From Akkermansia sp. (GTDB lineage: Bacteria; Verrucomicrobiota; Verrucomicrobiia; Limisphaerales; SIBH01): a DNA stretch of 64,000 nt. Where the stretch lies: contig JAYVNY010000191.1 in NCBI GenBank assembly GCA_043758205.1, forward strand, positions 21,581-85,580, in the 5' to 3' direction. Shown here piece by piece: positions 8,234 to 52,740 of this stretch. The translations under genes and the position numbers were made by a program. The stretch's first letter is position 1. Each line of letters starts with the position of its first letter. The notes below the pieces were generated by a model that saw only the letters and a list, made by a program, of their open reading frames with translations, made no database searches and had not been told where the DNA came from.

Positions 8234-9676
8234 ATGTCCCCTGGAAAATTAGCCGGAACAAATATTCTGGTCGTCGAAGACGACCCATTGCTGCATCGGC
8301 AGATCGTGGCGCATCTGCAAAGTAGCGGTGCGGATGTTGTCGGCGTACCCAACCTCCAGCAGGCGAAAGGCGAACTTGAATCGCAGCGGAGTTTCGACGT
8401 GGCGCTGCTGGATGTGAATTTGCCGGACGGTCTCGGCACTGACTTGCTGACCTCGGGAGTTTTTCCCCAACAGACGGCGGTGATTGTGATGACCGCTCAC
8501 GGCGGAATTGATTGCGCGGTCGCCGCGATGAAAAATGGCGCCGCCGATTATCTGCGCAAGCCGTTCGATCTGGCGGAACTGCCGCTGGTGATTTCAAGGG
8601 CGCGCGAATCGGGCCGGCAGGCACGCATCAAAGAACACGTGCGGGAAACGAACGAAGATGCGGAGGATTCGTTTTTTTTCGGTGCCAGTCTGACAGCCCT
8701 GGCCAACCAGATGGATAAAATTATCGCAGCAGATGAGCGTCTCGGCTCGCTGTTGCCGCCCATTCTGATCGAAGGCGAGACGGGCACGGGCAAGACCACG
8801 ATCGCGCGGCGGTTGCACGACCGCGGACCGCGACAAACCCGTCCGTTCATCGACATCAATTGCTCGGCGCTGCCCGATCATCTGCTGGAATCGGAATTGT
8901 TCGGGCACGAGCGCGGCGCTTTCACGGACGCGCGGACAGCGCGCATGGGGTTGTTCGAGGCAGCGGACGGCGGCACGCTTTTTTTGGATGAGCTTCCGAG
9001 CCTGCCACTCTCGGCGCAGGCGAAACTGCTCACGGCCATCGAGACGAAGCGCATTCGCCGCCTCGGCAGTAACAAGACCATTGAAGTGGATGTGCGGGTG
9101 ATCACCGCGACCAATCGCGACCTCAAGGAATCTGTCGCCCAGGGTGAGTTCCGGGAAGATCTGTATCACCGCCTCGATCTGTATCGTGTCAGCATTCCGC
9201 CCCTGCGCGAACGCGGCGAGGACATCATCAAGCTGGCCGGGTTAATCCTCGCGCGCGTGTGCCGGCGCCATCGCGCCGCGCCGCGAACTATCAGTGCGCA
9301 GGGCCAACGCCAGCTCTTGAGTTATCGCTGGCCCGGCAATGTCCGCGAGCTGGCCCATGAGATTGAGCGCGCGGTGGTTTTTGAAGACGCCGCTGTGCTC
9401 GACTTCGCACGGCTTGCGCCCGACTCAGCCGCGCCGATTGCCGCCCTCCCAATGGCCGATTCGAACGAATGGTTTAATGACCAATTCGTTTTTCCAACGG
9501 ATGGTTTTTCGCTGGATGCCGCCACGAATCGGCTCATTCATCAGGCTTTGAAACAGTCCAGGGCCAATGTCTCGGCAGCCGCACGCCTGTTGGGCGTCTC
9601 GCGAGATTTCCTGCGCTACAGACTGGCGGGAAAGCAAACTGAGAACATGCCCCCATCCGAGAGCGACAAAGGGTGA
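8234..9676 (+). CDS. Sigma54-dependent response regulator (NtrC/ZraR family enhancer-binding protein)
   Basis: REC domain ILVVEDDPLL...FDVALLDVNLPDGLG. AAA+ domain ILIEGETGTGKT and ESELFGHERGAFTDA (a GAFTGA-loop variant). C-terminal Fis-type HTH NVSAAARLLGVSRDFLRYRL. I prefer the ATG at 8234 over the track TTG at 8225. Confidence 0.95.
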   Translation: MSPGKLAGTNILVVEDDPLLHRQIVAHLQSSGADVVGVPNLQQAKGELESQRSFDVALLDVNLPDGLGTDLLTSGVFPQQTAVIVMTAHGGIDCAVAAMKNGAADYLRKPFDLAELPLVISRARESGRQARIKEHVRETNEDAEDSFFFGASLTALANQMDKIIAADERLGSLLPPILIEGETGTGKTTIARRLHDRGPRQTRPFIDINCSALPDHLLESELFGHERGAFTDARTARMGLFEAADGGTLFLDELPSLPLSAQAKLLTAIETKRIRRLGSNKTIEVDVRVITATNRDLKESVAQGEFREDLYHRLDLYRVSIPPLRERGEDIIKLAGLILARVCRRHRAAPRTISAQGQRQLLSYRWPGNVRELAHEIERAVVFEDAAVLDFARLAPDSAAPIAALPMADSNEWFNDQFVFPTDGFSLDAATNRLIHQALKQSRANVSAAARLLGVSRDFLRYRLAGKQTENMPPSESDKG

Positions 9677-9737
9677 AGACACCCATGATGGTTCACGTTC
9701 ACAGGCCACAGGCCGATGGGTTGGGGTGGGCCATCGG

Positions 9738-9753
9738 TGGCACGTTCTGTGCA
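9738..9753 (+). promoter_or_regulatory. Sigma54 (-24/-12) promoter candidate
   Basis: TGGCACGTTCTGTGCA compared with consensus TGGCACG-N4-TTGCW. The GG/GC spacing is exact and there is one mismatch in the -12 box. It lies ~40 nt upstream of the ATG at 9792, directly after a sigma54 activator gene. Confidence 0.6.
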
Positions 9754-9791
9754 TCTCGAAGGTCATAGGGATGCCACAACAGGTAAATAAC

Positions 9792-10310
9792 ATGAAAATA
9801 AGTAAAACAATGGTGACCGGGATCTTGAGCCTGACGATGGGGCTGGCCCTGCTCACGAACTCTGCCCGCGCGCAGAGTCCGACAAACGAACCGCCCGTCG
9901 TGCCGCCCGGACCTGGCACGCCGCCTCCGGCAGGGACGGTGCCAGTCAGTCCGAAAGTGCCGACGGTGGTCGTGGTGCCCACTGTGCCGGCAACTCCCGG
10001 GGTCCCAGACCGGCCGGGTCCACCCGCTGGCAGTCAGCCGCCCGCCGAAGTGAAAGACAAAGTTGATGCCTTCAAGCAGGCCCGTGAATCGTTCCTCGCC
10101 AAGCAGCGTGAACTGGCCGGCGCGAAGCGGCAGCAACTGACCGAGGAACAGCGGCAGGCGCTCATTGAAACCATCAAAGCCAACCAGCAGGAACTCCGGG
10201 CGCGCATCGATGAAATCAAAAACGAGTTTCGTAACCGGGACATCGACACGGTGATTGAGGATGTCAAACGCAGTGGAGGCGATGGACGCCCGCGCCGCGG
10301 TGAAGATTAA
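9792..10310 (+). CDS. Secreted Pro-rich / coiled-coil protein with LTXXQ motif (CpxP/Spy/ZraP-like)
   Basis: I trimmed track ORF 9567..10310 to the ATG at 9792. Signal peptide MKISKTMVTGILSLTMGLALLTNSARA, then a Pro-rich linker, then a helical part containing QQLTEEQRQALIETIKANQQELRARI. Confidence 0.7.
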   Translation: MKISKTMVTGILSLTMGLALLTNSARAQSPTNEPPVVPPGPGTPPPAGTVPVSPKVPTVVVVPTVPATPGVPDRPGPPAGSQPPAEVKDKVDAFKQARESFLAKQRELAGAKRQQLTEEQRQALIETIKANQQELRARIDEIKNEFRNRDIDTVIEDVKRSGGDGRPRRGED

Positions 10311-10322
10311 AATTCTCCCGGT

Positions 10323-11462
10323 GTGACGACTCATTCCAGCAGGCGGCCGCGTGGTCGCCTGCGCTGTTATTTTTTGATAGCCGCGCTGATGACCGCGCGG
10401 CTCTCGTTTGGTGCCATGGACACAAATGACGTGAGTGCAATCTCCTTGCCCGACTGGATGCGCTTCTACGCGCTGCGGTCGGGGATTGGTTACAAAGACA
10501 ATGTGCTTCTTTCGTTGCATCCGCGCGGCAGCGCCTTCGTGAGTGCGGGCGGAGATTTCATGATGGTGCGCCTGCCGGGCAGCGGCGTGGACGCACAATT
10601 TTTTCTCTCTGCGGACCGGACGCATTTTCTGGCGAGTGATGTCCCGGACAGCGAACACACCATTGCGGGCGTCGGCAAAGTTTCGTTCAAGAGCGGCCGG
10701 GCCACGACTACTCTGAGTGCCAATTACGTTTTTCAAGACCAGGTGCTCGACGTCTCGACGACAGAACCGGAGTTCAACACCATTCGCATCCGCGTGCATG
10801 ACATGGCGGTGAAACCCGCCGTCCGCTACGATCTCGCGCGGCAATGGTTTGTCGAAGTCGAGCCAGCGGGCCGGCGCCAGGAATTCGCCAAGCCGCTGGA
10901 CGACATTTGGGAAGCGAGCCTGAAAACGACACTCGGCTACGAATATGGTTTTCGCTCCCGCGCCACACTTTCAGCGCAAGCATCCGAACGGTTTTACGAT
11001 GAGAAGACGCAGCGCACCGTCGCCGGCGAAACGATTCCTGACACTTCGTTGCGCATGCACCGCGTTATCATCGAGTCCGCCGTGGATCATTACTGGGATA
11101 AAAAGCGCGTCTGGCGAACGCAGGGCCGCCTGGGTTACTGGCGCAACAACGACAATGGTTCGGGCTACTTCGATTACGACCGCTGGTTCGCACAGGTGCA
11201 GATGCGCTACAAGCGCGCGCCATGGGAACTGCGGGCGCAGGTACGGTTCGACGATTACATTTATGCCCACCAAACTGTGAGCACCACGAACTCCGACCGC
11301 CGTCGCGAAAATGAAATCACCGTGGGCTGCCGCGCCGAACGGCAGATCACGAAGGCGACCAAAGTGTTCGTGCAGTACGACCGGGTTGTTTCCCGCTCGT
11401 CCCGTTCTCTCGATGAATATGATTCGCAAACGGTGAGTGGTGGGGCACAATGGGATTTCTAA
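10323..11462 (+). CDS. Putative outer-membrane beta-barrel protein
   Basis: 379 aa with a signal-like N-terminus (CYFLIAALMTARLSFGA). The sequence alternates amphipathic Y/R/W-rich segments and ends in an aromatic residue (...GGAQWDF). No family recognised. Confidence 0.55.
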   Translation: MTTHSSRRPRGRLRCYFLIAALMTARLSFGAMDTNDVSAISLPDWMRFYALRSGIGYKDNVLLSLHPRGSAFVSAGGDFMMVRLPGSGVDAQFFLSADRTHFLASDVPDSEHTIAGVGKVSFKSGRATTTLSANYVFQDQVLDVSTTEPEFNTIRIRVHDMAVKPAVRYDLARQWFVEVEPAGRRQEFAKPLDDIWEASLKTTLGYEYGFRSRATLSAQASERFYDEKTQRTVAGETIPDTSLRMHRVIIESAVDHYWDKKRVWRTQGRLGYWRNNDNGSGYFDYDRWFAQVQMRYKRAPWELRAQVRFDDYIYAHQTVSTTNSDRRRENEITVGCRAERQITKATKVFVQYDRVVSRSSRSLDEYDSQTVSGGAQWDF

Positions 11463-11502
11463 TCAGAATGCAACCCGGCAATGCCGATGAGTTGATTGGC
11501 CA

Positions 11503-12915
11503 GTGAAAAGATTCCGCAAATTTCAGAAACGACCTGCGAGCGCATTTTGGCTCGGCACGGGCGCCGTTACGTTTGTCGTGGCGGTTCTTGGCGCCGCGGT
11601 GTGGCTCATCAGCGCGCGCCTCGAAAGGCAGGTGCAGCAACAAATTCTCGACCGTGATGCCTACGCGCTGCACTCGGTGTTCATGATGCAGGTGCTCTCG
11701 AAGCAGGATGCCGGCGGCGCGGATTGGGGCATCAAAGATCCGCTGAACCAACTCACGGCCATTCTCGAAACGTCACGGTTGAAAGGCGTGCTCGCGGCGC
11801 GTCTCTATTCTCCCGCCGGTAATTTTCTCTTCGCCGTTCCCAACAATGTGGCGAGCGCGCCACTGAACGCGGTGGCTCTTCGCGAGGCGCGACAACTCAA
11901 ACCATCGGCCCGGTTCGACGCGCAAGGGAAACTTCACGAACTGTTCGAAGGGGACCGCCCGACTCCACCCGTCCCGCTCGTGCGCGTAACGATTCCCATC
12001 CATGCGCTCGCCGCGCGGCAACTCGACGGCATTGCCGAGTTCATTCTGGACGGGCATCCCGTGGCCGCTGAATACAGCACGCTGGCGAGCCGGCTTTCGC
12101 GCCACGGTCTGATTGTATTCCTCCTCGCTGCGGGCCTGATCGGGCTGGTGATTGGCTGGTCGCTGCGGCGGTTGAGCCGCATCAACCACGCGCTGGCGGC
12201 GCGCACGGCGGAACTGGTGCGCGCGAATGAAGAACTCACCCTGGCGGCAAAAACTTCGGCGATTGGTTCTGTGGCGGCGCATCTGATGCATGGCCTGCGT
12301 AACCCTCTCGCGGGGTTGCAGAACTTCGTCACCGCCGGCGGGGGCGCCGCAATCACCAGTTCGGATTGGGAACTCGCCGCGGACGCCACCGCGCGAATGG
12401 GCCGGCTGATGGATGAGACGGTGCGCGTGCTCACTGAAGAACACGGCATCACGCGTTACAACATCACCAGTGGCGAACTCGCGTCCCTGCTCCGATCTCG
12501 GATGACGCCGCCGGCCGAGCAGTCGGACGTGAAGCTCGACATCGTGGCCGCCGCGGAGTCGTCCCTGCCGAATCGCGAAGCGAACATCGTGCTGCTCGTG
12601 CTTCAAAACCTCGTTAAGAATGCCATCGACTGCACTCTTGCGGGCCACACTGTCAGCGTGCGCTTGTTTGAAGACGCCAGTAGCTTTGTCTGCGAAGTGA
12701 GCGACGCAGGCCCGGGACTGCCGGAGCACGTGCGTGACAATCTGTTTCGCCCGGTGCGTTCGACGAAACCCGACGGCGCTGGCATCGGCCTGGCCATTTG
12801 CAAACAACTGGCCGCGCACATCGCCGCTGAACTCACGGTGAAAAAAACTTCGCGTGAGGGAACGGTGTTCGCACTCACGTTGCCGGCCAAAACCCATGCC
12901 TTGAAAGTCGCATGA
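11503..12915 (+). CDS. Sensor histidine kinase (two TM segments, ~170-aa extracytoplasmic domain)
   Basis: GTG start. H-box SVAAHLMHGLRNPLAGL, N-box LVLQNLVKNAIDCT, G1 VSDAGPGLP, G2 DGAGIGLAICKQL. Confidence 0.9.
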   Translation: MKRFRKFQKRPASAFWLGTGAVTFVVAVLGAAVWLISARLERQVQQQILDRDAYALHSVFMMQVLSKQDAGGADWGIKDPLNQLTAILETSRLKGVLAARLYSPAGNFLFAVPNNVASAPLNAVALREARQLKPSARFDAQGKLHELFEGDRPTPPVPLVRVTIPIHALAARQLDGIAEFILDGHPVAAEYSTLASRLSRHGLIVFLLAAGLIGLVIGWSLRRLSRINHALAARTAELVRANEELTLAAKTSAIGSVAAHLMHGLRNPLAGLQNFVTAGGGAAITSSDWELAADATARMGRLMDETVRVLTEEHGITRYNITSGELASLLRSRMTPPAEQSDVKLDIVAAAESSLPNREANIVLLVLQNLVKNAIDCTLAGHTVSVRLFEDASSFVCEVSDAGPGLPEHVRDNLFRPVRSTKPDGAGIGLAICKQLAAHIAAELTVKKTSREGTVFALTLPAKTHALKVA

Positions 12916-14885
12916 AAACCGGTGCGCTTCTGTGGCTGCTGGGGTTCGCGCTCGCCTGGGCGCAGCCGGATTTGCGCTGGCGCTGGTCGAACCCGCGTCC
13001 CTTCGGTAACAACGCCACCGACCTCGCTTACGCGGGCGGACTGTACCTCGTGGTCGGCGAACGCGGCCAACTCTACTCCAGCTACGATCTCGATACGTGG
13101 ACGCCGCAGGACAGTTTCACCACTAATTCACTTCGCGGCGTGGCGTTCCTCGGCGGACGCGCCATCATCGTCGGTGAAAATGGGACCGTCCTTTACGGCG
13201 ATACGCCGGAATCATTCAGCGTGACCAATCTCGGCACGGCGAACTGGCTCGAAGCCGTGGCGTGCAATTCAACCAATCTCGCCGTAGCGGTGGGCGACAA
13301 TGCAGCCGTGTACACGAGCACGAACGGGATTCTGTGGCAGCTTCGCTCGCAGCCGTTCAGCACCTGGCTGCGCGGTGTGGCCTACGGCGCGGGCGGGTTC
13401 GTTGCCGTTGGCGAGGGCGGATTCATCGCTACCAGCAGCAATGGAACGTCGTGGCAGCAACGCACCAGCGGCACGACGAGCAATCTCAATCGTGTGGTTT
13501 GGATTGTGGATCGTTACTGGGCCACGGGCGATGGCGGCAAAGCGCTGACCAGCGGGACGGGTGTCACGTGGACCCAGGAAAGTTCCGGTGCGAGCCGTCC
13601 ATTGTATCTCGCGGCAGGAGATTCTGTGAAAAAACTCGTGGGCGGCGACACGGAGTTGCGCCTCAAACAAAACGGCGTGTGGTCGAACCAGCTTTCAACA
13701 ACCAGGATTTCTCCCGCGCCCGCGTGGACTTACCTGAGCAGCGTGTGGGACGGACGCCTGTTTCTCGTGGGCGGGCGCACCGGAATGTTGCTCGAAGGTT
13801 TTAGCAACACAAACGGGACGGACACGTTGTGGGTGGATCGCAACCTTTCCGTGCGCACATGGCTTTGGGCCGTGACGCGCACCACCAATCTCTACGTCGC
13901 TGTCGGCGACAAGGGCACGGTGATGACGAGCTTTGACGGCGTGGATTGGCAACTGGAATTCGTGCCGTCCACCGTCACGAACAGTGTGTTCATCGGCGTG
14001 GGCGGCGCGCCGGGGTTGACCATCGCCGCAGGCAGCCAGGGTTCGCTTATCATCAGCACGAATGGTTTCGATTGGACGGCGATTGAGCCGCGACCTTCGG
14101 TGAACGATCTGCAAGGCGTCGCGTTCACGAACGGACTTTTCGTCGTGTGCGGCGGCGCGGGAACCATTCTCACCAGCACGAATGGCACGCAGTGGACGAC
14201 GCGCGTTTCCGGCACGACAAACTTCCTGTCCGGCGTGCTGGCGTACCCGGGCGGGTTCATCGCAGTCGGGCATCGCGGCACCATCCTCACCAGTCCCGAC
14301 GCTGTCACCTGGACGAAGCGCACCTCGGGGATCACGAATTGGCTTTACCGGATCGGCTGGTTCGGGAGCACGCTCGTAACGGTCGGCCAGAATGGCGTGA
14401 TTCTGACCAGCACTGATGGCGCGTCATGGACAGCGCGGACGAGCGGGACTTCTCAATGGCTGAACGACGTGGCGCGTCTCGATGGCTATTACTTTGCCGT
14501 CGGTAATGGCGGAGCCGTTGTCATCAGTTCCAACCTCACTTCGTGGTCAGCGATTGGCACCAGCACACGGAAATCACTGTTCGGCGTGGCGACGCATCAG
14601 GGACGGTTGGTGACGGTCGGCACTGAGGGCGTCATCCTCCGCACCCGCGTGTTTCCTCAGCTCGATCCGCCGGTCTTCCAGAACTACGCGCGAACCACGA
14701 ACTACAACTTGTATTTCCTTTCCGGCAAAACCGATCAACGCATCACGCTCGACCACAGTCTCAGGCTCACGAATTGGAATTCGGGCCCGCGTTTCGAATT
14801 CCTCGATGGAGGGGGCACGCTCCTGTTGCTGGAAACACGCGCCATGACCAATCGGGAATTCTACGAGGCTACGCTCGTTCCCTAA
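12912..14885 (+). CDS. Secreted multi-bladed beta-propeller repeat protein (BNR/Asp-box- or Ycf48-like repeats)
   Basis: Signal peptide MKTGALLWLLGFALAWA. At least 11 repeats of the form G.G..G.ILTS.(D/N)G..W (TSTNGILWQ, SSNGTSWQ, TSFDGVDWQ, STNGFDWT, TSTNGTQWT, TSTDGASWT...). The ATG overlaps the kinase stop (ATGA). Confidence 0.8.
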   Translation: MKTGALLWLLGFALAWAQPDLRWRWSNPRPFGNNATDLAYAGGLYLVVGERGQLYSSYDLDTWTPQDSFTTNSLRGVAFLGGRAIIVGENGTVLYGDTPESFSVTNLGTANWLEAVACNSTNLAVAVGDNAAVYTSTNGILWQLRSQPFSTWLRGVAYGAGGFVAVGEGGFIATSSNGTSWQQRTSGTTSNLNRVVWIVDRYWATGDGGKALTSGTGVTWTQESSGASRPLYLAAGDSVKKLVGGDTELRLKQNGVWSNQLSTTRISPAPAWTYLSSVWDGRLFLVGGRTGMLLEGFSNTNGTDTLWVDRNLSVRTWLWAVTRTTNLYVAVGDKGTVMTSFDGVDWQLEFVPSTVTNSVFIGVGGAPGLTIAAGSQGSLIISTNGFDWTAIEPRPSVNDLQGVAFTNGLFVVCGGAGTILTSTNGTQWTTRVSGTTNFLSGVLAYPGGFIAVGHRGTILTSPDAVTWTKRTSGITNWLYRIGWFGSTLVTVGQNGVILTSTDGASWTARTSGTSQWLNDVARLDGYYFAVGNGGAVVISSNLTSWSAIGTSTRKSLFGVATHQGRLVTVGTEGVILRTRVFPQLDPPVFQNYARTTNYNLYFLSGKTDQRITLDHSLRLTNWNSGPRFEFLDGGGTLLLLETRAMTNREFYEATLVP

Positions 14886-14958: not shown

Positions 14959-15257
14959 GAGCGCCCACCGACGGACCAAATCGTGCGGGCTGGGGACGTC
15001 TTTGGAATGTTGCGCGAGGGCAGCAACACCGCACGCGAGGGCGCGTGCGTGCATTTGAATCATTCCGTCTAGGTGCTCCTCCGTTGGGAACCAGAACCCA
15101 GCCCCGGGAGGCTCCTGGGTGAGCGCGCCCATCATCAATACCCGCACTTCGCACGGTGTTTCATGTTGGTGCAATTTCTGCATCACGACAGGACACCGGG
15201 CGCAGTCGCCACGTGGCATTGAGACTGCAAGCGACTGGAACAATAATTACAACAATC

Positions 15258-16505
15258 ATGAAAACATACAGATACATTCGACCAATCGCCCTCGCTGCAG
15301 CCGTGGTTTGCTCGTCCATCGCGATCCATGCCGCTGATTTTATCCCGGACCGCTATATCGTCGCATTACAGCCGAACGCCGACCCGGCGCAAGTTGCGGC
15401 GCGTTATGGCGTGACTCCAACGCACGTTTACACCGATGCCGTGCGCGGCTTCGCCGGACTCATCAGCAAAGCCCGCCTGCAACGGCTCGCGCAGGACGCT
15501 GACGTGACCGTCATCGAACAGGATCGAGTCGTATCACTCGGACAAGTGGCCAGCATGGGCGAGAGCGGAACCGTGGCTGCCACGTCCACGGATTACGTGC
15601 CGACCGGGGTCAACCGCATCGATGCGGAACTGAATCCGCGCACCGATGCCTCTGCTGTCGGAATCGCGATTATCGACACCGGCATTTCACTCACACACCC
15701 CGACCTGAACGTGGCTGGCGGCGTTTCCTATGTGCGCGGCGTGCGTTCGGCCAATGACGACAACGGCCACGGCAGCCATGTCTCTGGCATTGCAGCCGCG
15801 AAGGTCAATGACATCGGCATCCGCGGCGTTGCACCCAATGCGCGCCTCTTCGCCGTGAAGGTTTTGGATTCGACGGGCAGCGGCTCGCTGTCGGGTGTCA
15901 TTTCCGGCATCGACTGGGTGACGAAGAATACGAAGACCAAAGGCATTCAGGTCGCGAACATGAGCCTCGGGTTCCAAGGCACCAGCTCGACGCTCGACAG
16001 CGCCATTACGAAATCCGTGGACGCAGGCGTCACTTACGTGGTGGCAGCCGGGAACAACGCCGCGGATGCGAACACATTCAGCCCGGCGCGGCACCCGAAG
16101 GTCATCACCATCTCCGCGTTCGTGGATACGGACGGCCAATGCGGCGGCGCGGGCGTGGGCACGGGCTACGGCGCAGACGACAGCTTCGCCTCCTTCAGCA
16201 ACTACGGATCGGTGGTGGCGCTCGCCGCCCCCGGGGTGAACATCTACTCGACTTACAAGGACGGCGGCTACGCCACGATGTCCGGCACGAGCATGTCTTC
16301 TCCGCATGTGGCCGGCGCGGCTTTGCAATACATCGCCGGGCACGCGGGCGCGACACCCGCGCAAGTCCGTTCGGCGCTGCTCAATGCGGCCACGCCGCAA
16401 TCCTGGACCTCTTGCACGCAAGATGCGACCGGCCGCTACCGCGGCGGATTTTTCGGAGACGTAGATGCCTACGCGGAACCAGTCGTGGATGTCGCAACGT
16501 TCTAG
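15258..16505 (+). CDS. Secreted subtilisin-like serine protease (peptidase S8 with I9 propeptide)
   Basis: I trimmed the track ORF to the ATG at 15258 (MKTYRYIRPIALAAAVVCSSIAIHA). Catalytic triad: IAIIDTGI (Asp), GHGSHVSG (His), SGTSMSSPHVAG (Ser). Confidence 0.95.
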   Translation: MKTYRYIRPIALAAAVVCSSIAIHAADFIPDRYIVALQPNADPAQVAARYGVTPTHVYTDAVRGFAGLISKARLQRLAQDADVTVIEQDRVVSLGQVASMGESGTVAATSTDYVPTGVNRIDAELNPRTDASAVGIAIIDTGISLTHPDLNVAGGVSYVRGVRSANDDNGHGSHVSGIAAAKVNDIGIRGVAPNARLFAVKVLDSTGSGSLSGVISGIDWVTKNTKTKGIQVANMSLGFQGTSSTLDSAITKSVDAGVTYVVAAGNNAADANTFSPARHPKVITISAFVDTDGQCGGAGVGTGYGADDSFASFSNYGSVVALAAPGVNIYSTYKDGGYATMSGTSMSSPHVAGAALQYIAGHAGATPAQVRSALLNAATPQSWTSCTQDATGRYRGGFFGDVDAYAEPVVDVATF

Positions 16506-16631: not shown

Positions 16632-18932
16632 ATGAAAAACTCAATCAATGCAATCGCGATCGCGCTTCTCGGCTTACTGACGGCAACGATGTCGCACGCA
16701 GCCGTGCCGGGCCCTGCACTCTCGGGAATATTCAGCTCCATCAGCGCGGGGAGCGTCGTGAACCTCTCCACCGAAGGAGAGATCGATTGGGTCCACTGGG
16801 GGTTGTTCACGGAGACGAGCCTTGATCGGAAAGCGGGTGTCATCGCGCAGATCAGCGACTTCACGCTCCTCGATGCGAGCAACGGATACGCCTACGTATA
16901 TCAATACGCCGACAACGCGAACAGCTACGGTTGGTTTGACGGCACGCCGAATGCGACCGTCACCAACACCACGACCGGGGTGTGGGCTTACGGCGTTCCA
17001 CAAATTGGCAGCGGGTTCAGGATCACCGCACCAGCCGACACCGCTACGCGCACGTTGAAAGTGTACGTTGGGGCCTACGGCGCGCGCGGGAAGTTTGAAG
17101 CCTTTCTGAGCGATGCCAGTGCCGCCGGATACACCAACACTTCGCTCTTCAATGTCATGAGCGGTCCGAGCGGAGTTTACACGCTCAACTACGCCGCCGC
17201 TTCAGCAGGGCAGCAGATGATTGTCCGATGGACGCTCACGTCGCCCTTTCAAGCGGATGGAAACGTGACGCTACAATCAGCCGCGCTGACTTCCAGCACC
17301 GCCAACAACCCTCCGTACGTCGCTCTCACGAATCCGCCGAACAACGCGAAGCTCTCCGCGGGAAACACCATTACGCTCCAGGCGACCGCGAGCGATCTGG
17401 ATGGCACCATTGCCAAAGTCGAATTCTACGCTGACAGCACGAAGCTGGGCGAAGACCTCACAAGTCCCTACAGCTTCGCATGGAGTTCGGTTCCCGCCGG
17501 CGCCTACGTGCTGACCGCGCGCGCGCTCGATAATCAAGGCGCCGCGTCTGTGTCACCGCCCGTGGAAATTTTTGTCAACGGCTCGGGCGGCACCTTGGCG
17601 GCGAGCAAAACAACGCCGGCCACTTCAATTAACCTCACGACAGACGGCAGCCGCGACTGGGCGCATTGGGGTCTGGCAACGAATAGCTTGTTCAATCACA
17701 AGGCCTCTGTCGTCCAGCAGATTAGCGACTACACCAAGATCGGCACCAACACAGCCCAACGATACACCGACAATTATACGGCGTTCGCGTGGAGCGACGG
17801 CACGCCGACGGCTTCCGTGTCCGGCGCGAACATCGGCGTGTACACGACCGGGGTGACGAATGGGTTCGAGATTACCGTTCCGGCCGACACCAACTCGCGC
17901 ACGCTGAAGGTGTACGTGGGGCTTTACGGAGCGCAGGGGAATTTTCAGGTGTGGTTGAGCGATTTCAGCGCCGCGGCTTTCACCGATACGAGCTTGAGCA
18001 ATTATTACGGCAGCTCGTACGGCGTTTACACCATCACGTATTCGGCAGCGTCCGCAGGGCAATCTCTCAAGGTGCGCTATCGCTCGTTGAAACTGTTCGA
18101 CCAGGACTACGGTAACGTCACGCTTCAAGCTGCGACCCTCGTCGTGAACTCGACGGGGAATACGCCACCCTTGGTGCAGATTACGTCACCGACCAACGGC
18201 ACGGTGTTGACCGCTCCGGCGAGCTTTACAGTTTCGGCAAGCGCTTCGGACAGTGACGGCACGATCAACCAGGTGGAGTTTTTCAACGGCAGCACATCGC
18301 TCGGCGTGGATAGTTCCAGTCCTTACAGCGTGTCCGTGAGCAGCCTGGCGGCAGGCAATTACACGCTCTCGGCTGTGGCCACGGACAACTCGGGCGCGAA
18401 GGCCACCAACAGCGTTTCCATCATCGTGAACAATCCGCCGACCGCGTCGATCACCAGCCCGACCAATGGGGCGTCCTTCGCAGCGCCCGCGACCATTACG
18501 ATTGCGGCGACGGCGAGTGACAGCGACGGAAGCATTGCGAAAGCGGAATTTTATCAAGGCGCGACCAAACTGGGCGAAGACACCACCTCTCCTTACTCAC
18601 TGGCGTGGAGCAACGTATCGGCGGGAAGTTACACGCTCAGTGTGAAAGCCATTGATGACCACGGCGCCGTGGGCACCTCGGCTGCGATTTCCATTAACGT
18701 GACGAACCTGCCGCCGCCGCCAGTCACGATTTTCGGCGCTGTCGCCCAGGGCGATGCACTGAGGTTCTCGTTTGCGACGGAACTTGGCCGCTCCTATTGG
18801 GTGGAGCGCGCGGCGGCATTGCCGTCCACCAATTGGCAAACCATCACGAACCTCAGCGGCACCGGCACGAACGTCACCGTGCGCGACGCCAGCGCACTGC
18901 CGATACACTTCTACCGCGTGGGGGCGCAATGA
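16632..18932 (+). CDS. Large secreted protein: SP - unknown domain A - Ig-like - domain A - Ig-like x2 - C-terminal FYRV module
   Basis: ATG at 16632 (MKNSINAIAIALLGLLTATMSHA). There are two ~220-aa copies of a domain marked by DW.HWGL, ISD(F/Y)T, RTLKVYVG.YGA.G.F...LSD and GNVTLQ.A.L. The Ig-like units have the form SP.NG....AP....T..A.ASDSDG.I..VEF. The protein ends ...LPIHFYRVGAQ. Confidence 0.85.
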   Translation: MKNSINAIAIALLGLLTATMSHAAVPGPALSGIFSSISAGSVVNLSTEGEIDWVHWGLFTETSLDRKAGVIAQISDFTLLDASNGYAYVYQYADNANSYGWFDGTPNATVTNTTTGVWAYGVPQIGSGFRITAPADTATRTLKVYVGAYGARGKFEAFLSDASAAGYTNTSLFNVMSGPSGVYTLNYAAASAGQQMIVRWTLTSPFQADGNVTLQSAALTSSTANNPPYVALTNPPNNAKLSAGNTITLQATASDLDGTIAKVEFYADSTKLGEDLTSPYSFAWSSVPAGAYVLTARALDNQGAASVSPPVEIFVNGSGGTLAASKTTPATSINLTTDGSRDWAHWGLATNSLFNHKASVVQQISDYTKIGTNTAQRYTDNYTAFAWSDGTPTASVSGANIGVYTTGVTNGFEITVPADTNSRTLKVYVGLYGAQGNFQVWLSDFSAAAFTDTSLSNYYGSSYGVYTITYSAASAGQSLKVRYRSLKLFDQDYGNVTLQAATLVVNSTGNTPPLVQITSPTNGTVLTAPASFTVSASASDSDGTINQVEFFNGSTSLGVDSSSPYSVSVSSLAAGNYTLSAVATDNSGAKATNSVSIIVNNPPTASITSPTNGASFAAPATITIAATASDSDGSIAKAEFYQGATKLGEDTTSPYSLAWSNVSAGSYTLSVKAIDDHGAVGTSAAISINVTNLPPPPVTIFGAVAQGDALRFSFATELGRSYWVERAAALPSTNWQTITNLSGTGTNVTVRDASALPIHFYRVGAQ

Positions 18933-19353: not shown

Positions 19354-20568
19354 TTACAACCCGGCAGCGTCAACGAGCGGCTCTGCATAACCATCGAAAT
19401 CGCCAGAGAATCCGCCGCGCGTTCGCCCGGTCGCGTCCTGCCAGCAGGCGACGGGAGACTGCGCCGTGCCAGTCGCTTGCAGCACCGACTTCACCTGGGC
19501 GGGGCTGAGCGAAGGATTGGAGATAACCAATTGTGCCGCCGCGCCAGCCACGTGTGGAGAAGCCATGCTTGTTCCGCTGAGCGTGGCATATCCGCCGTCC
19601 TTGTAAGTCGAATAGATGTTCACCCCGGGCGCCGCAATCGCGACCACAGAACCGTAGTTGCTGAAGGTAGCGAACGTGTCATCGCCGCCGTAGTAGGTGC
19701 CTGCACCCGCACCGCCACAACTGCCATCCGTGTCCGCAATGGCGGAGACGGCAATGACCTTGGGATGCTTCGCCGGGCTGAAGGTGCCGGCGTCCGCAGC
19801 GCTGTTGCCCGCCGCGACCACGTAAACGACACCTGAATCAACCGACTTGGAAAGGGCGCTGTCGAGGGTGGAACTGGTGCCAGAAAAACCGAGGCTCATG
19901 TTGGCGACCCGGATGCCTTTGACGGCCGCGTTTTTGGTCACCCAATCAATTCCAGAAACCACGGCTGAAAGAGCACCGCTGCCGCTCTTGTCGAGAACTT
20001 TGACCGCGTACAACCGTGCATTCGGGGCGACTCCGCGAATGCCAGCGCCGTTGATCTTGGCCGCCACGATGCCTGACACATGACTACCGTGCCCATTGTC
20101 GTCATTGCCTGACCGGACTCCGCGCACATAAGAAACGCTGCCGGCCACGTTCAAATCCGGATGGGTGAGTGAAATGCCCGTGTCAATAATCGCCACGCCC
20201 ATCGCAGAAGAGTCGGTGCGGGGATTGAGATTGGCACCGATCCGCGCCACGCCGAGGGGAACAGCGTCGCCGGTCGTCGCGCTGGCGACGCTCGTCTGCG
20301 CGGCGGTCTGGCCGATGCTGACCGTAATGTCCTGCTCAATGAGCAGTACGTCTGGATCGCGTTGCAGTGCATTGAGTCGGGCGGCGGGAATCATGCCGGC
20401 AAATCCATTCACGGCTGCGGTGTAAACGTGCTCGGCAGCGATGCCGTGACGATTGGCGACGGCAACTGGATTTGCCTGGGCCCGCACTTGCACGATGAAC
20501 GATCCTGGAATGGGAGCCGCGAGGAGGCTTCCGGCCATGAACGAGATTAACAGTATGTATTTTTTCAT
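19354..20568 (-). CDS. Secreted subtilisin-like serine protease (S8 + I9), paralog of 15258..16505
   Basis: ATG at 20568 (MKKYILLISFMAGSLLA). Triad: VAIIDTGI, GHGSHVSG, SGTSMASPHVAG. Most aligned positions are identical to the plus-strand paralog by eye, but synonymous sites differ. Confidence 0.95.
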   Translation of the reverse strand: MKKYILLISFMAGSLLAAPIPGSFIVQVRAQANPVAVANRHGIAAEHVYTAAVNGFAGMIPAARLNALQRDPDVLLIEQDITVSIGQTAAQTSVASATTGDAVPLGVARIGANLNPRTDSSAMGVAIIDTGISLTHPDLNVAGSVSYVRGVRSGNDDNGHGSHVSGIVAAKINGAGIRGVAPNARLYAVKVLDKSGSGALSAVVSGIDWVTKNAAVKGIRVANMSLGFSGTSSTLDSALSKSVDSGVVYVVAAGNSAADAGTFSPAKHPKVIAVSAIADTDGSCGGAGAGTYYGGDDTFATFSNYGSVVAIAAPGVNIYSTYKDGGYATLSGTSMASPHVAGAAAQLVISNPSLSPAQVKSVLQATGTAQSPVACWQDATGRTRGGFSGDFDGYAEPLVDAAGL

Positions 20569-20704
20569 AATGGGATTGTCGGTCGCGGAAAATAGCATGG
20601 CAGATGCCTCGCCACAACACGCTTGGAGAACAAATCCCGTGCCGCGAATTCAGACAATGGTGTCTCACGGCAGTCCAATTTCAGCACACGACGGTCAAAC
20701 AATT

Positions 20705-22459
20705 TCACTGCGTCAACACCCGGTAAAAACGTTGGGTGGCCGAGTTGACGATGTCCGTGACGGACAGAGTTCCACCATTGCCGACAACGTTCGTGAACGT
20801 CTGCCACGCCAATGGACTGAGCGACGGCGTGAATTGCGCGGCGTAGCTGTAAGATGGCTGGCTCTGGAATGAGAACGTGAACGTGTTGGCGGCCTGCCCT
20901 GGATTGTAGAGTTGAACGGGCAAACCCAGAGGGGGCGGGCCTTGCAACGTCGCGGCCGCGAGAGTCACGTTTCCGTAATCAACATCGAAAAGATTTTGAA
21001 TCGTCCAGCGAATGTGAAGGCGTTGTCCGGCGGAAGCCGCCGCGTAGTTCAGTGTGTAAATCACGTAGGAGTTTCCGAACACGTTGCTGAGGGTCAAATC
21101 GGTGAAGGCGCGTCCGCTGAAGTCGCTGAGCCAGGCCTGAAAATTTCCCTGCGCGCCGTAGAGGCCGGCGTAGATGCGCAACGTGCGCGAGTTCGTGTCG
21201 GCGGGAACCCTGAACTCGAAGCCATTCGTCAAGCCCGTGATGTAAACGCCCAGGTTGCTGTTATTCACGCTGCTGACCGGCGTGCCATCGCTCCACGAAA
21301 AGGCGGTGCGGTTGTCGGTGAAGCGAATCACTGCGTTCGTGCCGAGGCGGGAGAAGTCGGTGATCTGCGTGCCACCCGTTGCTTTGTGATTGAAGTTACT
21401 CGCGTTCAACAATCCCCGATGCGCCCAGTCCGACGTGCCTTCAGTGGTGAGATTCAAGGCCGTAGGCGCGGCGGTACGGCTGCCCGCGAGAGAGCCGCCG
21501 CTGCCCGCCACGAAGAGTGTCACCGGCGCGGACACGCCCGCGCCCGCCAGAGTGTCGATGGCGCGCGCCGTGATGATGTGCCGCCCGGGCGGCGGATTGG
21601 TCCAGACCAACGAATACGCCGGGCCGACCGAATCGCCGAGTTTCGTGACGCCCGCGTAGAATTCGACCAGCGTCACCGAGCCATCGCTGTCACTGGCATT
21701 GGCGGTCAGCGTGATGTTGGTGGGCGCAACGACGCTGGTGCCCTCCGGCGGCGAAGTGATGGTTACGAACGGCAGGTTGTTCGCACCGGGCGCCGTGAGC
21801 GCCGCCGACTGCAGCGTCACGTTCCCATCGGCCCGATACGCCGTTTGCAGCGTGTAAATGATGTCGAGGGTTTGATTGGTCGAATTCGCGGCAAAGTTAA
21901 GGGTGTAAAAAGCGCTCGGGCCATTTACGAGGTTGTTGACGGACGCGTTGGCGCTGTTGGTGTAGCCGTTGGCGCTGTTGTCGCTGAGGGTCGCGACGAA
22001 CCTGCCCCGCGCTGCGTATGCGCCTACGTAAACGCGCAACGTTTGCATGTTGGTGCGGGCCGGGACGTTGAGACGAAAACCAGAGCCGATGTTCGGAGTG
22101 CCGTAAGCCCACACGCCCGTCGTCGTATTCGTCACCGCCATGTGCGGCCCGCCATCACTCCAGGTGTAGCCATTCGCGTTGTCGGCGTATTGGTAGATGT
22201 AAACGTAGCCGTTGCTCGCATCGACGGGTGTGAAGTCGCTGATCTGGGGCGTGACACCGGCTTTGCGATCAAGGCTTGTTTCCGTGAACAACCCCCAATG
22301 CACCCAGTCGAGCACGCCGTTGGTGGTGAGGTTGACGACGGAGCCGGCCGGAATGGAATTGAAAGTCGCGGTCAAAGTTCCCGCGCGACCAGTCAGGGCC
22401 AGCATCGAGATGACGCAGACCAGCGAAGTGGGGAACCACCGAAACAAATTCATGCTCAT
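20705..22459 (-). CDS. Large secreted protein: SP - domain A - Ig-like - domain A - C-terminal FYRV module
   Basis: 584 aa starting MSMNLFRWFPTSLVCVISMLALTGRA. It has the same domain-A signatures as 16632..18932, one Ig-like unit, and ends ...ATQRFYRVLTQ. Confidence 0.85.
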   Translation of the reverse strand: MSMNLFRWFPTSLVCVISMLALTGRAGTLTATFNSIPAGSVVNLTTNGVLDWVHWGLFTETSLDRKAGVTPQISDFTPVDASNGYVYIYQYADNANGYTWSDGGPHMAVTNTTTGVWAYGTPNIGSGFRLNVPARTNMQTLRVYVGAYAARGRFVATLSDNSANGYTNSANASVNNLVNGPSAFYTLNFAANSTNQTLDIIYTLQTAYRADGNVTLQSAALTAPGANNLPFVTITSPPEGTSVVAPTNITLTANASDSDGSVTLVEFYAGVTKLGDSVGPAYSLVWTNPPPGRHIITARAIDTLAGAGVSAPVTLFVAGSGGSLAGSRTAAPTALNLTTEGTSDWAHRGLLNASNFNHKATGGTQITDFSRLGTNAVIRFTDNRTAFSWSDGTPVSSVNNSNLGVYITGLTNGFEFRVPADTNSRTLRIYAGLYGAQGNFQAWLSDFSGRAFTDLTLSNVFGNSYVIYTLNYAAASAGQRLHIRWTIQNLFDVDYGNVTLAAATLQGPPPLGLPVQLYNPGQAANTFTFSFQSQPSYSYAAQFTPSLSPLAWQTFTNVVGNGGTLSVTDIVNSATQRFYRVLTQ

Positions 22460-22483: not shown

Positions 22484-24814
22484 TCAAAATTGCGGCAGAG
22501 ATTGAGCGCCCGCGCGGAAGAACCTTTGGGCCGCGGGCGAGGTGCGATTAGTGATCGTCACGAGCGTGCCGTCCCCGCTGAAGTTCGTCAGAAACTGCCA
22601 GTTGATGGGGGAGAGGGAATCTGTGAATTCGACCGTGTAGGTCGTGGCGGCTCTGGTTTCGAAGGAAAAAACAAAATCTTCGCCGACAATTCGCGGATTA
22701 AAAATGACAGCCGCAGAGGGTGTATTGCTGACCACGGTGATGCTGATGGGGCTGGAGGTTGTGGACGCGCCACGATTGTCGGTGGCGAGGGCGGTCAAAC
22801 TGTAAGTGCCGACCGAGAGGTTGCTGACCGTGAAGTTGAATGGAGCAGCCGCATCAACCCCCAACACGGTTGTTCCCGCATAAAATTCCACGCTCGACAC
22901 CGTCCCGTCGGAATCTGATGCAGACGCCGCAATCGTAAATGTGGCCGGCGCGCTGAAAATTGCGTGGTTAATCGGACTGTTCATCGTGACCGTCGGCAGG
23001 GCGTTCACCGTAATGGTGATCGAATTCGTGGTCTTCGCTCCCTGATTGTCCGTGGCCACGGACGAAAACGCGTAGGTTCCGTCGGCAAGATTGCTGACCG
23101 TCACAGCGTACGGACTCGTCGTGTCAGCACCAACCGATACAGCTCCGTTGAAGAACTCCACTTGCGTCACGCTGCCGTCGCTATCGGATGCAGTCGCTTC
23201 CAGCGTAAACGTGGCCGGAGCGGTGAGGACCGCGTTGTTCACGGGATTGGTGATGCTGACGACGGGCGGCACGTTGGTCGCCGTCAGCGCTCCAAGCTGA
23301 AGGGTCGCGGCCTGGAGCGTCACGTTGCCGTAAGTGAAATCGTACGCGTTTCCGATGGTCTGCCGCACGATGAGCCGCTGTCCCGGTGAAGCCGCCGCGT
23401 AATCGATCGTGTAAACCACGTAGCGGTTCCCGAACACGTTGCTCAGGGAAGTATCCGTGAAGGCTCGGCCGCTGAAATCAGTGAGGAACGCTTCGAAGTT
23501 GGCCTGTGCTCCGTACAGGCCCGTGTAAACCTTGAGCGTCCGCAGGCGGGTGTCTGCTGGAGCACTGATCTCAAAGCCGTTGGCGGCACCCGTCACGAAG
23601 AGGCCGGTCGTGGAACCGTTCGTCGTCGCGAGGGGAACGCCATCCGACCATGAGAACGCTGTGTAATTGTTATCGTACCGCGTAACTACATTGCTGCCGA
23701 TGAGCGTGAAGTTGGAAATCTGCCCATTGCCCGTGGACTTGTGATCGAAGCTGGAGGCAGTCAGCGCGCCCCAGTGCGCCCAGTCTGAAGTCCCTTCCGC
23801 AGTGAGATTGACGGCCGCCGGCGAATTGCTGCGGGTGCCGGATAGCGCACCGCCTGGTCCGCCGACGAAGACGGTGACCCGCGAGGAAATCCCCACGCCG
23901 CCGGCATTGTCGATCGCGCGTGCGGTGAGCACGTAGGAGCCGGGCTGTGGATTTGTCCAGACGATAGAGTAGGGCGCACTCGTGGCTTGGCCGATCTTGT
24001 TCGAAGCAGCAAAGAACTCGACCGCGCTGACGGTCCCGTCGGCATCACCCGCCGTGGCGCTCAACACGATCATATTCGTTGGAGAAAAACTCGCCCGGTC
24101 CTCAGGATTGGTGAGAGCCACGAAGGGAAGATTGTTCAACCCCGGGGTGCTCAGAGCCGCCGCTTGCAAAGTCACATTGCCACCCCCGCCGCTGCCGCGC
24201 AGCCGTGCCAACGTGTAAAAAACGGTCAACGTCTGCCCCGGTGAATTGGCCGCGAAATTAAGGGTGTAAACGGCGCTCGGTCCATTGCCGTTGTTGTCCA
24301 CCGCCGTGCTGTTGGTGTAATTGGGCGCGCTGGCATCACTGAGAAAGGCCACGAACTTGCCCTGCGCGGCAAAAGCGCCCACATACACTTTGAGCGTCTG
24401 AACATTGGTGCTTGCCGGAACGCTAAAACGAAAACCTGTGTCCGCCGCCGGCACGCCGTAGGCCCACACCCCCGTCGTTGTATTCGTCACCGCCAGGTGC
24501 GGTGTGCCATCAGTCCAAGTGTAACCGTTGGCATTGTCCGCGAACTGGTAAATGTAAACGTAGCCACCGCTCGCAGCGACCGGTGTGAAATTGCTGATGC
24601 GCGGCGCCACATTGACTTTGCGGTCGATACTCGTGTCGGTGAGCAGGCCCCAATGAACCCAGTCGGCGGAGCCGGCCACCGTCAAATTCACTGCGGAGCC
24701 AGCGGGGATGGAATTGAATGTTGAGGTCAAAGTGCCCGCGCGACTGCTCAACGTTGAAATCGAAACGCCGCAGGCCAGCAAAATGGAAAACCGAAAAAGC
24801 CGATACATTTCCAA
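22484..24814 (-). CDS. Large secreted protein: SP - domain A - Ig-like - domain A - Ig-like x2 - C-terminal module
   Basis: 776 aa with a TTG start in the track. The ATG at 24808 (MYRLFRFSILLACGVSISTLSSRA) is more likely. The architecture is collinear with 16632..18932. It ends ...AAQRFFRAGAQSLPQF. Confidence 0.85.
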   Translation of the reverse strand: MEMYRLFRFSILLACGVSISTLSSRAGTLTSTFNSIPAGSAVNLTVAGSADWVHWGLLTDTSIDRKVNVAPRISNFTPVAASGGYVYIYQFADNANGYTWTDGTPHLAVTNTTTGVWAYGVPAADTGFRFSVPASTNVQTLKVYVGAFAAQGKFVAFLSDASAPNYTNSTAVDNNGNGPSAVYTLNFAANSPGQTLTVFYTLARLRGSGGGGNVTLQAAALSTPGLNNLPFVALTNPEDRASFSPTNMIVLSATAGDADGTVSAVEFFAASNKIGQATSAPYSIVWTNPQPGSYVLTARAIDNAGGVGISSRVTVFVGGPGGALSGTRSNSPAAVNLTAEGTSDWAHWGALTASSFDHKSTGNGQISNFTLIGSNVVTRYDNNYTAFSWSDGVPLATTNGSTTGLFVTGAANGFEISAPADTRLRTLKVYTGLYGAQANFEAFLTDFSGRAFTDTSLSNVFGNRYVVYTIDYAAASPGQRLIVRQTIGNAYDFTYGNVTLQAATLQLGALTATNVPPVVSITNPVNNAVLTAPATFTLEATASDSDGSVTQVEFFNGAVSVGADTTSPYAVTVSNLADGTYAFSSVATDNQGAKTTNSITITVNALPTVTMNSPINHAIFSAPATFTIAASASDSDGTVSSVEFYAGTTVLGVDAAAPFNFTVSNLSVGTYSLTALATDNRGASTTSSPISITVVSNTPSAAVIFNPRIVGEDFVFSFETRAATTYTVEFTDSLSPINWQFLTNFSGDGTLVTITNRTSPAAQRFFRAGAQSLPQF

Positions 24815-24818
24815 AACC

Positions 24819-25550
24819 TTATGGCACGGCAGGAACAGCGCTCACATGCCCGTCAAAATAAAGCCGGTTCCAAATCTTACCGTGGACTGGCCGGTCGGGC
24901 AGATCGTCATACCAGCTCGGCACGATGTTGATGCTCACCTTGTCCGCATCCTCGATGGCCCAACTCTCTGCCGCGGAAGCGAACTGGGTCATCTCGGAAA
25001 GTTTCATCGGCTTCTCGGCCGGGCCAGGTGGGCTGGGATAACCAAATGGCCGGGCGGTGCCCGCACCGGGATCCACGTCCCAGTTCAACAGGTAAATCTT
25101 ACGCCCGGTCACGCCGCCGGAGGCGCCGGGCGCGGACTTCACGTAGCCGGGGCAAATCATCACGTTCGCGGTTCGCATCTTCGTGTCCGGAGGGGGATAT
25201 CCGAGGTATGGAGCGAGGAAGAAGGCCAGTTCCCGGCTCTGGTTCCGATCATAGTTCGGCTGCGCACCACCGAGACAGGGACCCGGGAGACGCTCCTCTT
25301 CATCCTCATCGGCGTAAAGTTGAAGGCCGATGCCCAACTGCTTCAGGTTCGAGAGGCATACCGTCTGGTGAGCCTTCGACTTGGCGCGCGCCAGTGCCGG
25401 CAAGAGCAGGCTGGCAAGAATGGCGATAATGGCGATGACGACCAGCAATTCGATAAGCGTGAACGCGTTACCGGCTGAACTTCGGTGACTTGATGCTGCA
25501 ACGGGTAGTTTCATGGCGCGCCCACTTTCGAGCACCGTCTTTTTTATCAT
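24819..25550 (-). CDS. Prepilin-type N-terminal cleavage/methylation domain protein (DUF1559 / H-X9-DG-like), paralog of 6777..7517
   Basis: [30 protein letters not shown] ... [14 protein letters not shown]. It is collinear with the 6777..7517 product over the full length. The alternative ATG at 25514 is possible. Confidence 0.9.
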
Positions 25551-25664
25551 TGTTTTGCGCTATTGCAACGGACGTTTGCCGGCAAGAGTGGTCACGCCTT
25601 GAAGCACTGATTCACTGCGATTCCGCGTTTGGCTTTCGGAAAACCCGCCCGTATAAAACGGGGA

Positions 25665-26036
25665 ATGAGTTTTCGTCGCGAAAGAGTGTTACTGATCGGA
25701 CTCGCCGCCGTGCTGTTTCTGTGCGCTTTGATGACGGTGCGACAGGTTCTCGAAAACCAGTCGCATCACGCCGAGGTGCGCGAGGCGTTCATCCTGTCCC
25801 ACCACAAAGGGAACAACGCCGACGCACAGCGGCTTTACGACCGGCTGAAGTATGACCTTCCCGAAGAACCAACCCGGCATCTGATCGATGATTTGGAGCG
25901 CACGGCAGTCCTAGCGCCGACGAACCAGTCGCCGTCCTCCAATCTGCTGGTGCGCTATCATCTCTCCGTGCAGCACGAAGTGCAAAAACGCGTGGAGCAA
26001 AAATACCTGAAGCCCAAAACGGAGAACGGTTCCTGA
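25665..26036 (+). CDS. Hypothetical single-pass membrane protein
   Basis: ATG at 25665 (MSFRRERVLLIGLAAVLFLCALMTV...). It ends 2 nt before the next gene. No family recognised. Confidence 0.45.
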   Translation: MSFRRERVLLIGLAAVLFLCALMTVRQVLENQSHHAEVREAFILSHHKGNNADAQRLYDRLKYDLPEEPTRHLIDDLERTAVLAPTNQSPSSNLLVRYHLSVQHEVQKRVEQKYLKPKTENGS

Positions 26037-26038
26037 AC

Positions 26039-51480: not shown

Positions 51481-51505
51481 TCAACTCGTCGAAAGGCATC
51501 TGCGC

Positions 51506-52720: not shown

Positions 52721-52740
52721 TTCGACTTCCGTCTCTTCAC

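Follow-up and report, generated by a model that had tools for sequence, protein, structure and literature searches.

Several described systems place a module at the C-terminus of diverse exported proteins. The C-terminal domain (CTD) of type IX secretion systems (T9SS; TIGR04183, Por_Secre_tail PF18962, CHU_C) is a beta-sandwich of about 70–90 amino acids (aa) on unrelated cargo with signal peptides, and the protein ends at the last strand of the domain. SLH, cell-wall-binding, choline-binding and GW repeats form terminal tandem units on diverse exported cargo of Gram-positive or S-layer-bearing cells. The signals of the PEP-CTERM/exosortase, LPXTG/sortase, GlyGly-CTERM and MYXO-CTERM systems are also C-terminal on diverse secreted cargo, and combine, within ~25 aa, a short motif with a transmembrane helix and a basic cluster. 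Fibronectin type III (FN3) and immunoglobulin (Ig)-like domains (Pfam fn3, PF00041) are small Greek-key sandwiches that occur in tandem, with seven strands (ABE / C'CFG) in FN3. PEP-CTERM occurs in Verrucomicrobia. To our knowledge, bacteria of the Planctomycetes–Verrucomicrobia–Chlamydiae (PVC) group, Verrucomicrobiota included, lack a T9SS and only some of their giant surface proteins carry PEP-CTERM; we know of no account of how such proteins are exported and retained in PVC bacteria, especially in Verrucomicrobiota. Here, we describe a module of about 70–75 aa that closes five exported proteins encoded in 64,000 nucleotides of DNA from Akkermansia sp. (Verrucomicrobiota, SIBH01; assembly GCA_043758205.1, contig JAYVNY010000191.1, positions 21,581 to 85,580 of the forward strand), the whole of which is called the window.

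The module resembles each of these systems in part. It shares with the T9SS CTD the C-terminal place, the approximate length, the predicted beta-sandwich, the unrelated signal-peptide cargo and the protein end at the last strand, but it forms arrays of up to eight units, its internal copies are equivalent and its model has six strands, not seven. With SLH, choline-binding and GW repeats it shares terminal tandem units on diverse exported cargo; this likeness is a functional analogy only, fold and sequence being unrelated, and the polar and aromatic signature of each repeat suggests multivalent binding to an envelope polymer of repetitive structure. In contrast to the short sorting signals, the module is folded, tandem and without a helix. 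It is like FN3 domains in its predicted Greek-key sandwich and tandem occurrence, and unlike them in having no sequence match, a conserved R-x-x-R and E/Q, and a near-obligatory C-terminal place. We tentatively read it as a multivalent C-terminal module for surface retention, or a stalk, in exported multidomain proteins of Verrucomicrobiota, and in function it would be closer to tandem anchoring repeats such as SLH and cell-wall-binding units than to a cleaved signal.

One module on three kinds of cargo

A preliminary description, made from the letters of the window, had proposed that the same type of end module closes five otherwise different proteins, namely three with ‘A’ domains resembling carbohydrate-binding modules (CBMs), here P1, P2 and P3, and, more distantly, a beta-propeller protein and a protein with TSP3 (calcium-binding) repeats. 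BLASTP, transitive and profile–profile matches confirm a common end module, and the positions first assigned to it in P1–P3 hold. The cargo is less varied than was thought. Along their entire length P1, P2 and P3 are paralogous (two CBM-like ‘A’ domains plus Big_7), whereas the propeller and TSP3-repeat proteins are unrelated to them and to one another; the number of independent cargo types in the window is therefore three, not five. P1 runs from a signal peptide through an ‘A’ domain, Big_7, a second ‘A’ domain and two further Big_7 domains to the end module, and its true start is likely the ATG at 16632 (MKNSINAIAIALL...). As read from the translations, all five proteins begin with a typical Sec signal peptide. 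The window has no further intact module copy.

The three tails of the ‘A’-domain proteins match one another in BLASTP at 1e-10 to 1e-18 (P2 against P1 and P3, 1e-10 and 6e-18), and the P1 tail matches a hidden Markov model (HMM) of 306 module copies at E 1.9e-19 (aa 729–798 of the open reading frame, ORF). The two divergent tails required more. HMMs built from the three tails, or from 120 tails of ‘A’-domain homologs, detected neither of them, and the refutation that these first ‘A’-domain-only profiles suggested was overturned by broader and ortholog profiles. The TSP3 tail, which is of a ‘W-S-x-x-G-x-x-Y’ subtype with the final letters KFLRIGVAR, matches the 306-copy HMM marginally (E 0.015), over its full length and C-terminally. 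Used as a phmmer query it returns members with several copies (P0129, 2.7e-18; P0131, 1e-15; P0155, 2e-9), and single P0129 copies match it at about 2e-5 each in end-to-end alignments, with the shared pattern …W.S..G.tY.L…AtgP..a.TN…rFyRv. When a sub-family HMM of those copies was searched against 715 six-frame ORFs of the window, it recovered the TSP3 tail at 1.9e-5 and the P2 tail at 7.7e-6.

The propeller tail of the window is degenerate, with EFYEAT (EFYEATLVP) where EFYRAT is expected, and on its own it goes undetected by the family HMM. Its orthologs carry the evidence: 58 of 120 match the family HMM below 1e-3, the match lying within 8 aa of the C-terminus in 57 of these 58, and the profile of their tails aligns with the family profile in hhalign at 97% (E=7.8e-11, 70 columns, end to end), against 0.6% for a reversed-profile control. 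The next best window matches of an HMM of the ortholog tails are the tails of P1–P3. One scan of the propeller protein against genome contigs returned only a 28%-identical Nitrospiraceae locus. Judged by these comparisons of sequence, all five window tails, the two distant ones included, belong to one homologous family, and each fits its definition of a full-length profile match with the signature at the protein end, P1–P3 directly, the TSP3 tail by way of the sub-family HMM and P0129, and the propeller tail by way of the ortholog profile.

Family, signature and predicted fold

A profile of a 72-sequence tail alignment, searched against 1.84 billion cluster representatives, matched 22,186 of them at E≤1e-3 and 3,374 at ≤1e-10. 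The 306-copy family HMM was built from the copies in the top matches, and the position and copy figures given below out of 148 refer to the best new matches (inspection covered the best 150 of about 22,000). The family signature is F/W...G..Y.V[EQ]...L....W..L...G.G....[DN].......RFYRV. Over the 306 copies, the tryptophan at position 40 is invariant (100%); the others before the final motif are Y27 (95%), E/Q30 (92%), F/W19 (87%), L35 and D/N57 (81% each), G24 (79%), G50 (69%) and V29 (61%), while the closing R-F-Y-R-V at positions 65–69 is conserved at 87, 79, 89, 96 and 66%, respectively.

An AlphaFold2 model from the 72-sequence alignment (pLDDT 92.8, pTM 0.78) has six beta strands in about 72 aa. 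Foldseek against the Protein Data Bank (PDB) ranks FN3 domains best, with TM 0.6–0.69 and weak E-values (0.03–0.3); the neighbours include Tie1, titin, cytokine receptors, the FN3 domain of the pectate lyase PelI and the RsgI4 sensor. The order of the conserved residues appears to parallel FN3 strands B, C, C', E and F, in a mapping drawn from strand count and motif order only: strand two would hold F/W, strand three Y-x-V, strand four W and the final strand a Tyr-corner-like FYRV. The module is thus predicted to be an FN3-like sandwich without the seventh (G) strand, because the model has six strands and the protein stops right after the strand that would match FN3 F.

The preliminary description had allowed that the module might prove to be a known generic Ig/FN3 family. 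This is not borne out, the likeness being one of fold only: hmmscan of the five tails against Pfam-A and NCBIfam gave no matches even at E≤10, neither to fn3 nor to an Ig family. In Pfam scans of the whole proteins, Big_7, PKD and similar domains lie only upstream of the tails, and the lone fn3 match in multi-copy proteins (P0135, aa 27–101) does not belong to the module array, whose start is at aa 111. A PDB sequence search with the family profile returned only insignificant Ig or FN3 matches, and a literature search on the RFYRV motif and on Verrucomicrobia C-terminal sorting or FN3 found nothing relevant. The family is absent from Pfam-A (2025 copy) and NCBIfam 20.0, and its fold is ordinary. 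In multi-copy proteins, Pfam DUF7298 (PF23972) matches once per repeat through positions 37–78 of its 167-position model (in P0123, locus L005 8087–10495, at 38 bits with a cut-off of 27), and DUF7298 may contain a sub-structure related to the module.

Position in the protein and tandem arrays

In 140 of the 148 proteins no more than 5 aa separate the end of the last copy from the C-terminus, and in three more the gap is 6–20 aa. Among the five exceptions, the terminal sequence of P0235 resembles a further divergent copy, and P0232 and P0270, in which a single copy is followed by unrelated sequence, look like gene-call problems. The module was detected in 117 of 122 ‘A’-domain homologs, each time within 7 aa of the end, and the C-terminal rule holds in every locus examined, including a 2,994-aa S8 peptidase with eight terminal copies. 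The distance to the stop codon is similarly fixed. The ending FYRV, described at the outset as frequent, is part of a consensus tail of R-F-Y-R-V, then 3–4 residues, then the stop; in 256 of 278 proteins the stop codon follows R-[FY]-[YF]-R by 4–5 residues.

Most members carry more than one copy. Of the 148 proteins, 104 have two or more copies, up to eight, arranged head to tail at intervals of about 75 aa. The extreme C-terminal place agrees with a T9SS CTD; the number of copies in these 104 does not. More than half of all copies (168/306) are internal, since the tandem arrays continue up to the C-terminus, and internal and terminal copies have the same consensus, RFYRV included. The expectation of matches only at C-termini therefore stands for the last copy of nearly every protein but not for the individual copy, and of the two observations that were to count against a sorting or anchoring role, internal or cytoplasmic matches, the former was made (within arrays, and in about 3 of the 148 proteins with no terminal copy at all) and the latter was not.

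Cargo, export and hosts

The cargo is diverse well beyond the window, as the preliminary description had held for its five proteins. A Pfam scan of 44 members returned Ig_3/I-set, RCC1, DUF11, Laminin_G_3, MBG, Calx-beta, Big_9, LTD, cupredoxin, LRR and cadherin domains, with no Pfam family common to all 44. Enzymes are represented by S8, P-domain and M4 peptidases, and source names include P-domain proprotein convertase, RCC1 protein, M4 metallopeptidase and tandem-95 repeat protein. The idea that only signal-peptide proteins carry the module is supported by the five window proteins and by the clearly complete relatives, all with signal peptides, but in relatives with long cargo that start with M a signal peptide is obvious in only about half; the others look like truncated gene calls that start inside extracellular domains. 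No cytoplasmic-type cargo was seen among the relatives inspected. The named sources are almost all Verrucomicrobia or Verrucomicrobiota metagenome-assembled genomes, with one ‘Candidatus Acidoferrum’. The window itself holds PSCyt1, PSCyt2, PSD1 and DUF1501 genes, which are typical of the PVC group.

What the module might do

Under the retention reading, which we favour without great confidence, the protein would first be exported by Sec and its module or modules would then tether it to the cell surface through non-covalent, multivalent contacts with some component of the envelope, of which an outer-membrane protein or a surface polymer with repeated units is the likeliest. The contact site would be a patch of conserved polar and aromatic residues around the last strand, and further copies would increase avidity and serve as a stalk. 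The strict C-terminal rule, the diverse exported cargo and the charged signature together point to more than a generic spacer, while the common tandem arrays of equivalent copies argue against a single cleaved T9SS-like tag and fit multivalent retention. Of the ‘sorting or anchoring signal’ first proposed, the anchoring half is hence reasonable and a single cleaved tag appears less likely. Several points weigh on the other side. The exposure of the conserved residues is deduced from strand periodicity only, and the conserved arginines, glutamate and aromatics could be purely structural, for example by stabilizing a sandwich that lacks its seventh strand. P0173 and P0222 have only internal copies, with other sequence after them, and the positional rule is established for high-scoring members (the best 150 of ~22,000) and two ortholog sets. 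In the neighbourhoods of six cargo families, no constant partner gene and no sorting enzyme (which the preliminary description had suggested might accompany the module), translocon or binding partner was found.

A plain structural role is somewhat unlikely in our judgement. The module would then be an FN3-like spacer or cap with no part in sorting or anchoring, and its arrays would merely happen to be C-terminal. Its fold and tandem repetition agree with this, W, Y, L and the Tyr-corner-like FYRV sit at what general knowledge gives as the usual FN3 core positions, and the cargo proteins are already rich in Ig-like spacers. Yet in the same proteins the Big_7 and PKD spacers are internal and the module is essentially always last, and within these 64 kb three unrelated kinds of cargo have each kept a single terminal copy. 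Moreover, the conservation of charged and polar positions (R68 at 96%, R65 at 87%, E/Q30 at 92% and D/N57 at 81%) would be unusual for a plain FN3 spacer. In another reading, which we consider unlikely, the module is a domain-type C-terminal sorting signal, an analogue of the T9SS CTD, and a dedicated outer-membrane machinery, new to PVC bacteria, would recognize the terminal copy, translocate the protein and possibly cleave or attach it. The strict C-terminal place on very diverse signal-peptide cargo and the tightly fixed distance from motif to stop speak for it, two cargo families adjoin type II secretion system (T2SS) or type IV pilus-like genes, and terminal copies can be told from internal ones in a cross-validated HMM test (p=5e-15). 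This last difference could, however, reflect positional orthology among related proteins; four of the six cargo families have no N_methyl or T2SS neighbours, and two to eight tandem copies that share one signature do not sit easily with a simple sorting tag. Nor did the T9SS CTD models (TIGR04183, PF18962, CHU_C) match any tail in Pfam/NCBIfam at permissive E-values, and the window yielded no T9SS component. Its only T9SS-like match is to GldK, at 73 bits where the cut-off is 350, far too low to be evidence of a T9SS. NCBIfam sorting-signal models likewise gave no match, and the sequences end in ...RFYRVxxx without a hydrophobic helix; YTV repeats and PEP-CTERM were rejected for want of Pfam/NCBIfam matches and by direct reading of the sequences.

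Binding of a ligand, as an adhesion or carbohydrate module for external substrates or for the cell's own exopolysaccharide, in the manner of the tandem C-terminal CBMs of glycoside hydrolases, is the least probable of the explanations considered. Tandem C-terminal arrays with a conserved aromatic-plus-arginine signature would suit it, the ‘A’-domain cargo is CBM-like (neighbours CBM22, CBM4 and CBM61), the ‘A’-domain genes are clustered with a GT2 polysaccharide-synthase-like gene and ABC exporters, and polysaccharide biosynthesis genes lie within 10 kb at several other loci. Against this, the module itself has no similarity to any CBM family, and polysaccharide genes are common. If the ligand were a surface glycan of the cell itself, this explanation would overlap with anchoring.

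Genomic context

The features of the window are listed in Table 1. The ‘A’ domain (~200 aa, two per protein, >700 homologs) has no Pfam or NCBIfam match; its model is a confident jelly-roll beta-sandwich (pLDDT 95.1), with weak Foldseek neighbours among CBM22, CBM4, CBM61 and CBM36. Through its TSP3 repeats, the TSP3-repeat protein scores 100 bits (cut-off 50) with the NCBIfam model ‘Amuc_1099 family pilus-like system protein’; MtsD and CglD-type cohesion or gliding proteins are matched too, at scores under the cut-offs. Upstream of the TSP3 gene, and overlapping its start, lies the gene of a signal-peptide protein with an FGE-sulfatase domain, the source of the 73-bit match above; as a candidate PorK/GldK it was rejected, the resemblance being one of superfamily only.

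Table 1. Location of the end modules, their genes and neighbouring features in the window
Feature	Position	Strand	Evidence or content
P1 end module	18714-18923	+	HMM envelope; 2 residues then stop
P2 end module	20714-20920	-	306-copy family HMM, E 2.5e-22
P3 end module	22511-22717	-	306-copy family HMM, 2e-22; 8 residues after
Propeller-protein end module (divergent)	about 14646-14882	+	Ortholog profile; partly degenerate
TSP3-protein end module (divergent)	about 54121-54309	+	Multi-copy members, sub-family HMM
P1 gene	16563-18932	+	789-aa ORF; ORF list, Pfam, A-domain model, Foldseek
P2 gene	20705-22459	-	Signal peptide, A domain, Big_7, A domain, end module
P3 gene	22484-24814	-	Paralog of P1 and P2
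Beta-propeller protein gene	12912-14885	+	Signal peptide and divergent end module
TSP3-repeat protein gene	52687-54324	+	Signal peptide and divergent end module
‘A’ domain	16632-17300		Homologous segments in P1–P3
A-domain paralog remnant	2967-3137	-	Frame-shifted, 170 bp; HMM E 0.018; tblastx
Two-component genes	8225-12915	+	Sigma-54 response regulator, unannotated 379-aa ORF, histidine kinase
S8 subtilase	15156-16505	+	I9 propeptide
S8 subtilase	19354-20598	-	I9 propeptide
Prepilin-type N_methyl gene	24819-25550	-	Directly upstream of P3
Conserved A-domain cluster	24819-28564		Syntenic with L002 and L003
FGE-sulfatase-domain protein	51461-52720	+	Signal peptide

The ‘A’-domain genes belong to a conserved cluster that recurs at two other loci (L002 6233–17980; L003 6292–18477). 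Its order is a GT2 gene (841 aa, exopolysaccharide-synthase-like, with a GH2-like TIM-barrel N-terminus), a small ORF, an N_methyl gene and an ‘A’-domain gene, then two MsbA-like ABC exporters and a second ‘A’-domain gene. This conserved order suggests joint action of the CBM-like ‘A’-domain proteins with an exopolysaccharide system and a pseudopilin. The window version is enlarged by two S8 subtilases, P1, P2 and a two-component system. The subtilases are paralogous and interleaved with the ‘A’-domain genes; they are absent from L002 and L003, and so would seem to have arisen, along with P1 and P2, by an insertion or duplication specific to the lineage. At 2967–3137, a short remnant holds the end of a last ‘A’ domain (…IYNVDFAAGTNNQTLIVR…) and the last ~30 codons of an end module. 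In tblastx its pieces are syntenic with the 3' end of the 841-aa ‘A’-domain gene of L002, between an ABC exporter and a Hexapep gene, and both L002 and L003 have an intact ‘A’-domain gene of 841–843 aa at this position, downstream of the ABC exporter pair. The remnant is thus what is left of a deleted fourth ‘A’-domain paralog.

An N_methyl gene stands directly upstream of ‘A’-domain genes in three loci. Elsewhere, an operon-like run on a 10.5-Mb contig (L004 1–18985) comprises T2SSF, three N_methyl pseudopilins and three unannotated proteins (259, 349 and 1385 aa), and ends with the 2,994-aa S8/P-domain peptidase and its eight module copies; this run may connect the module with a type II or type IV pilus-like system. 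An association with pseudopilins or T2SS as a general rule was rejected, as two cargo families have it and four do not. The propeller gene, in turn, lies immediately downstream of the two-component genes and overlaps the stop codon of the histidine kinase. One of its orthologs (P0285, 1130 aa) is a kinase–propeller fusion, which suggests that the propeller protein is functionally tied to the two-component system.

Implications

Were the module only a structural cap, the value of these results would be limited to the definition of a new domain family. Otherwise, it would be at once an annotation handle for many proteins now called ‘hypothetical’ or ‘Ig-like domain-containing’ and would define a candidate surface proteome, and a recombinant module could serve as bait for an anchoring or sorting partner. 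A wider proposal, that the module marks proteins displayed at the surface by a domain-type C-terminal system peculiar to PVC bacteria, comparable with the T9SS CTD or with SLH anchoring and with a receptor or translocon still to be found, we regard as doubtful. If it is true, the module profile would predict the surface proteome of the phylum, the partner could be found by phylogenetic profiling, and the display of the many giant adhesin-like and enzyme proteins of Verrucomicrobiota would have an explanation.

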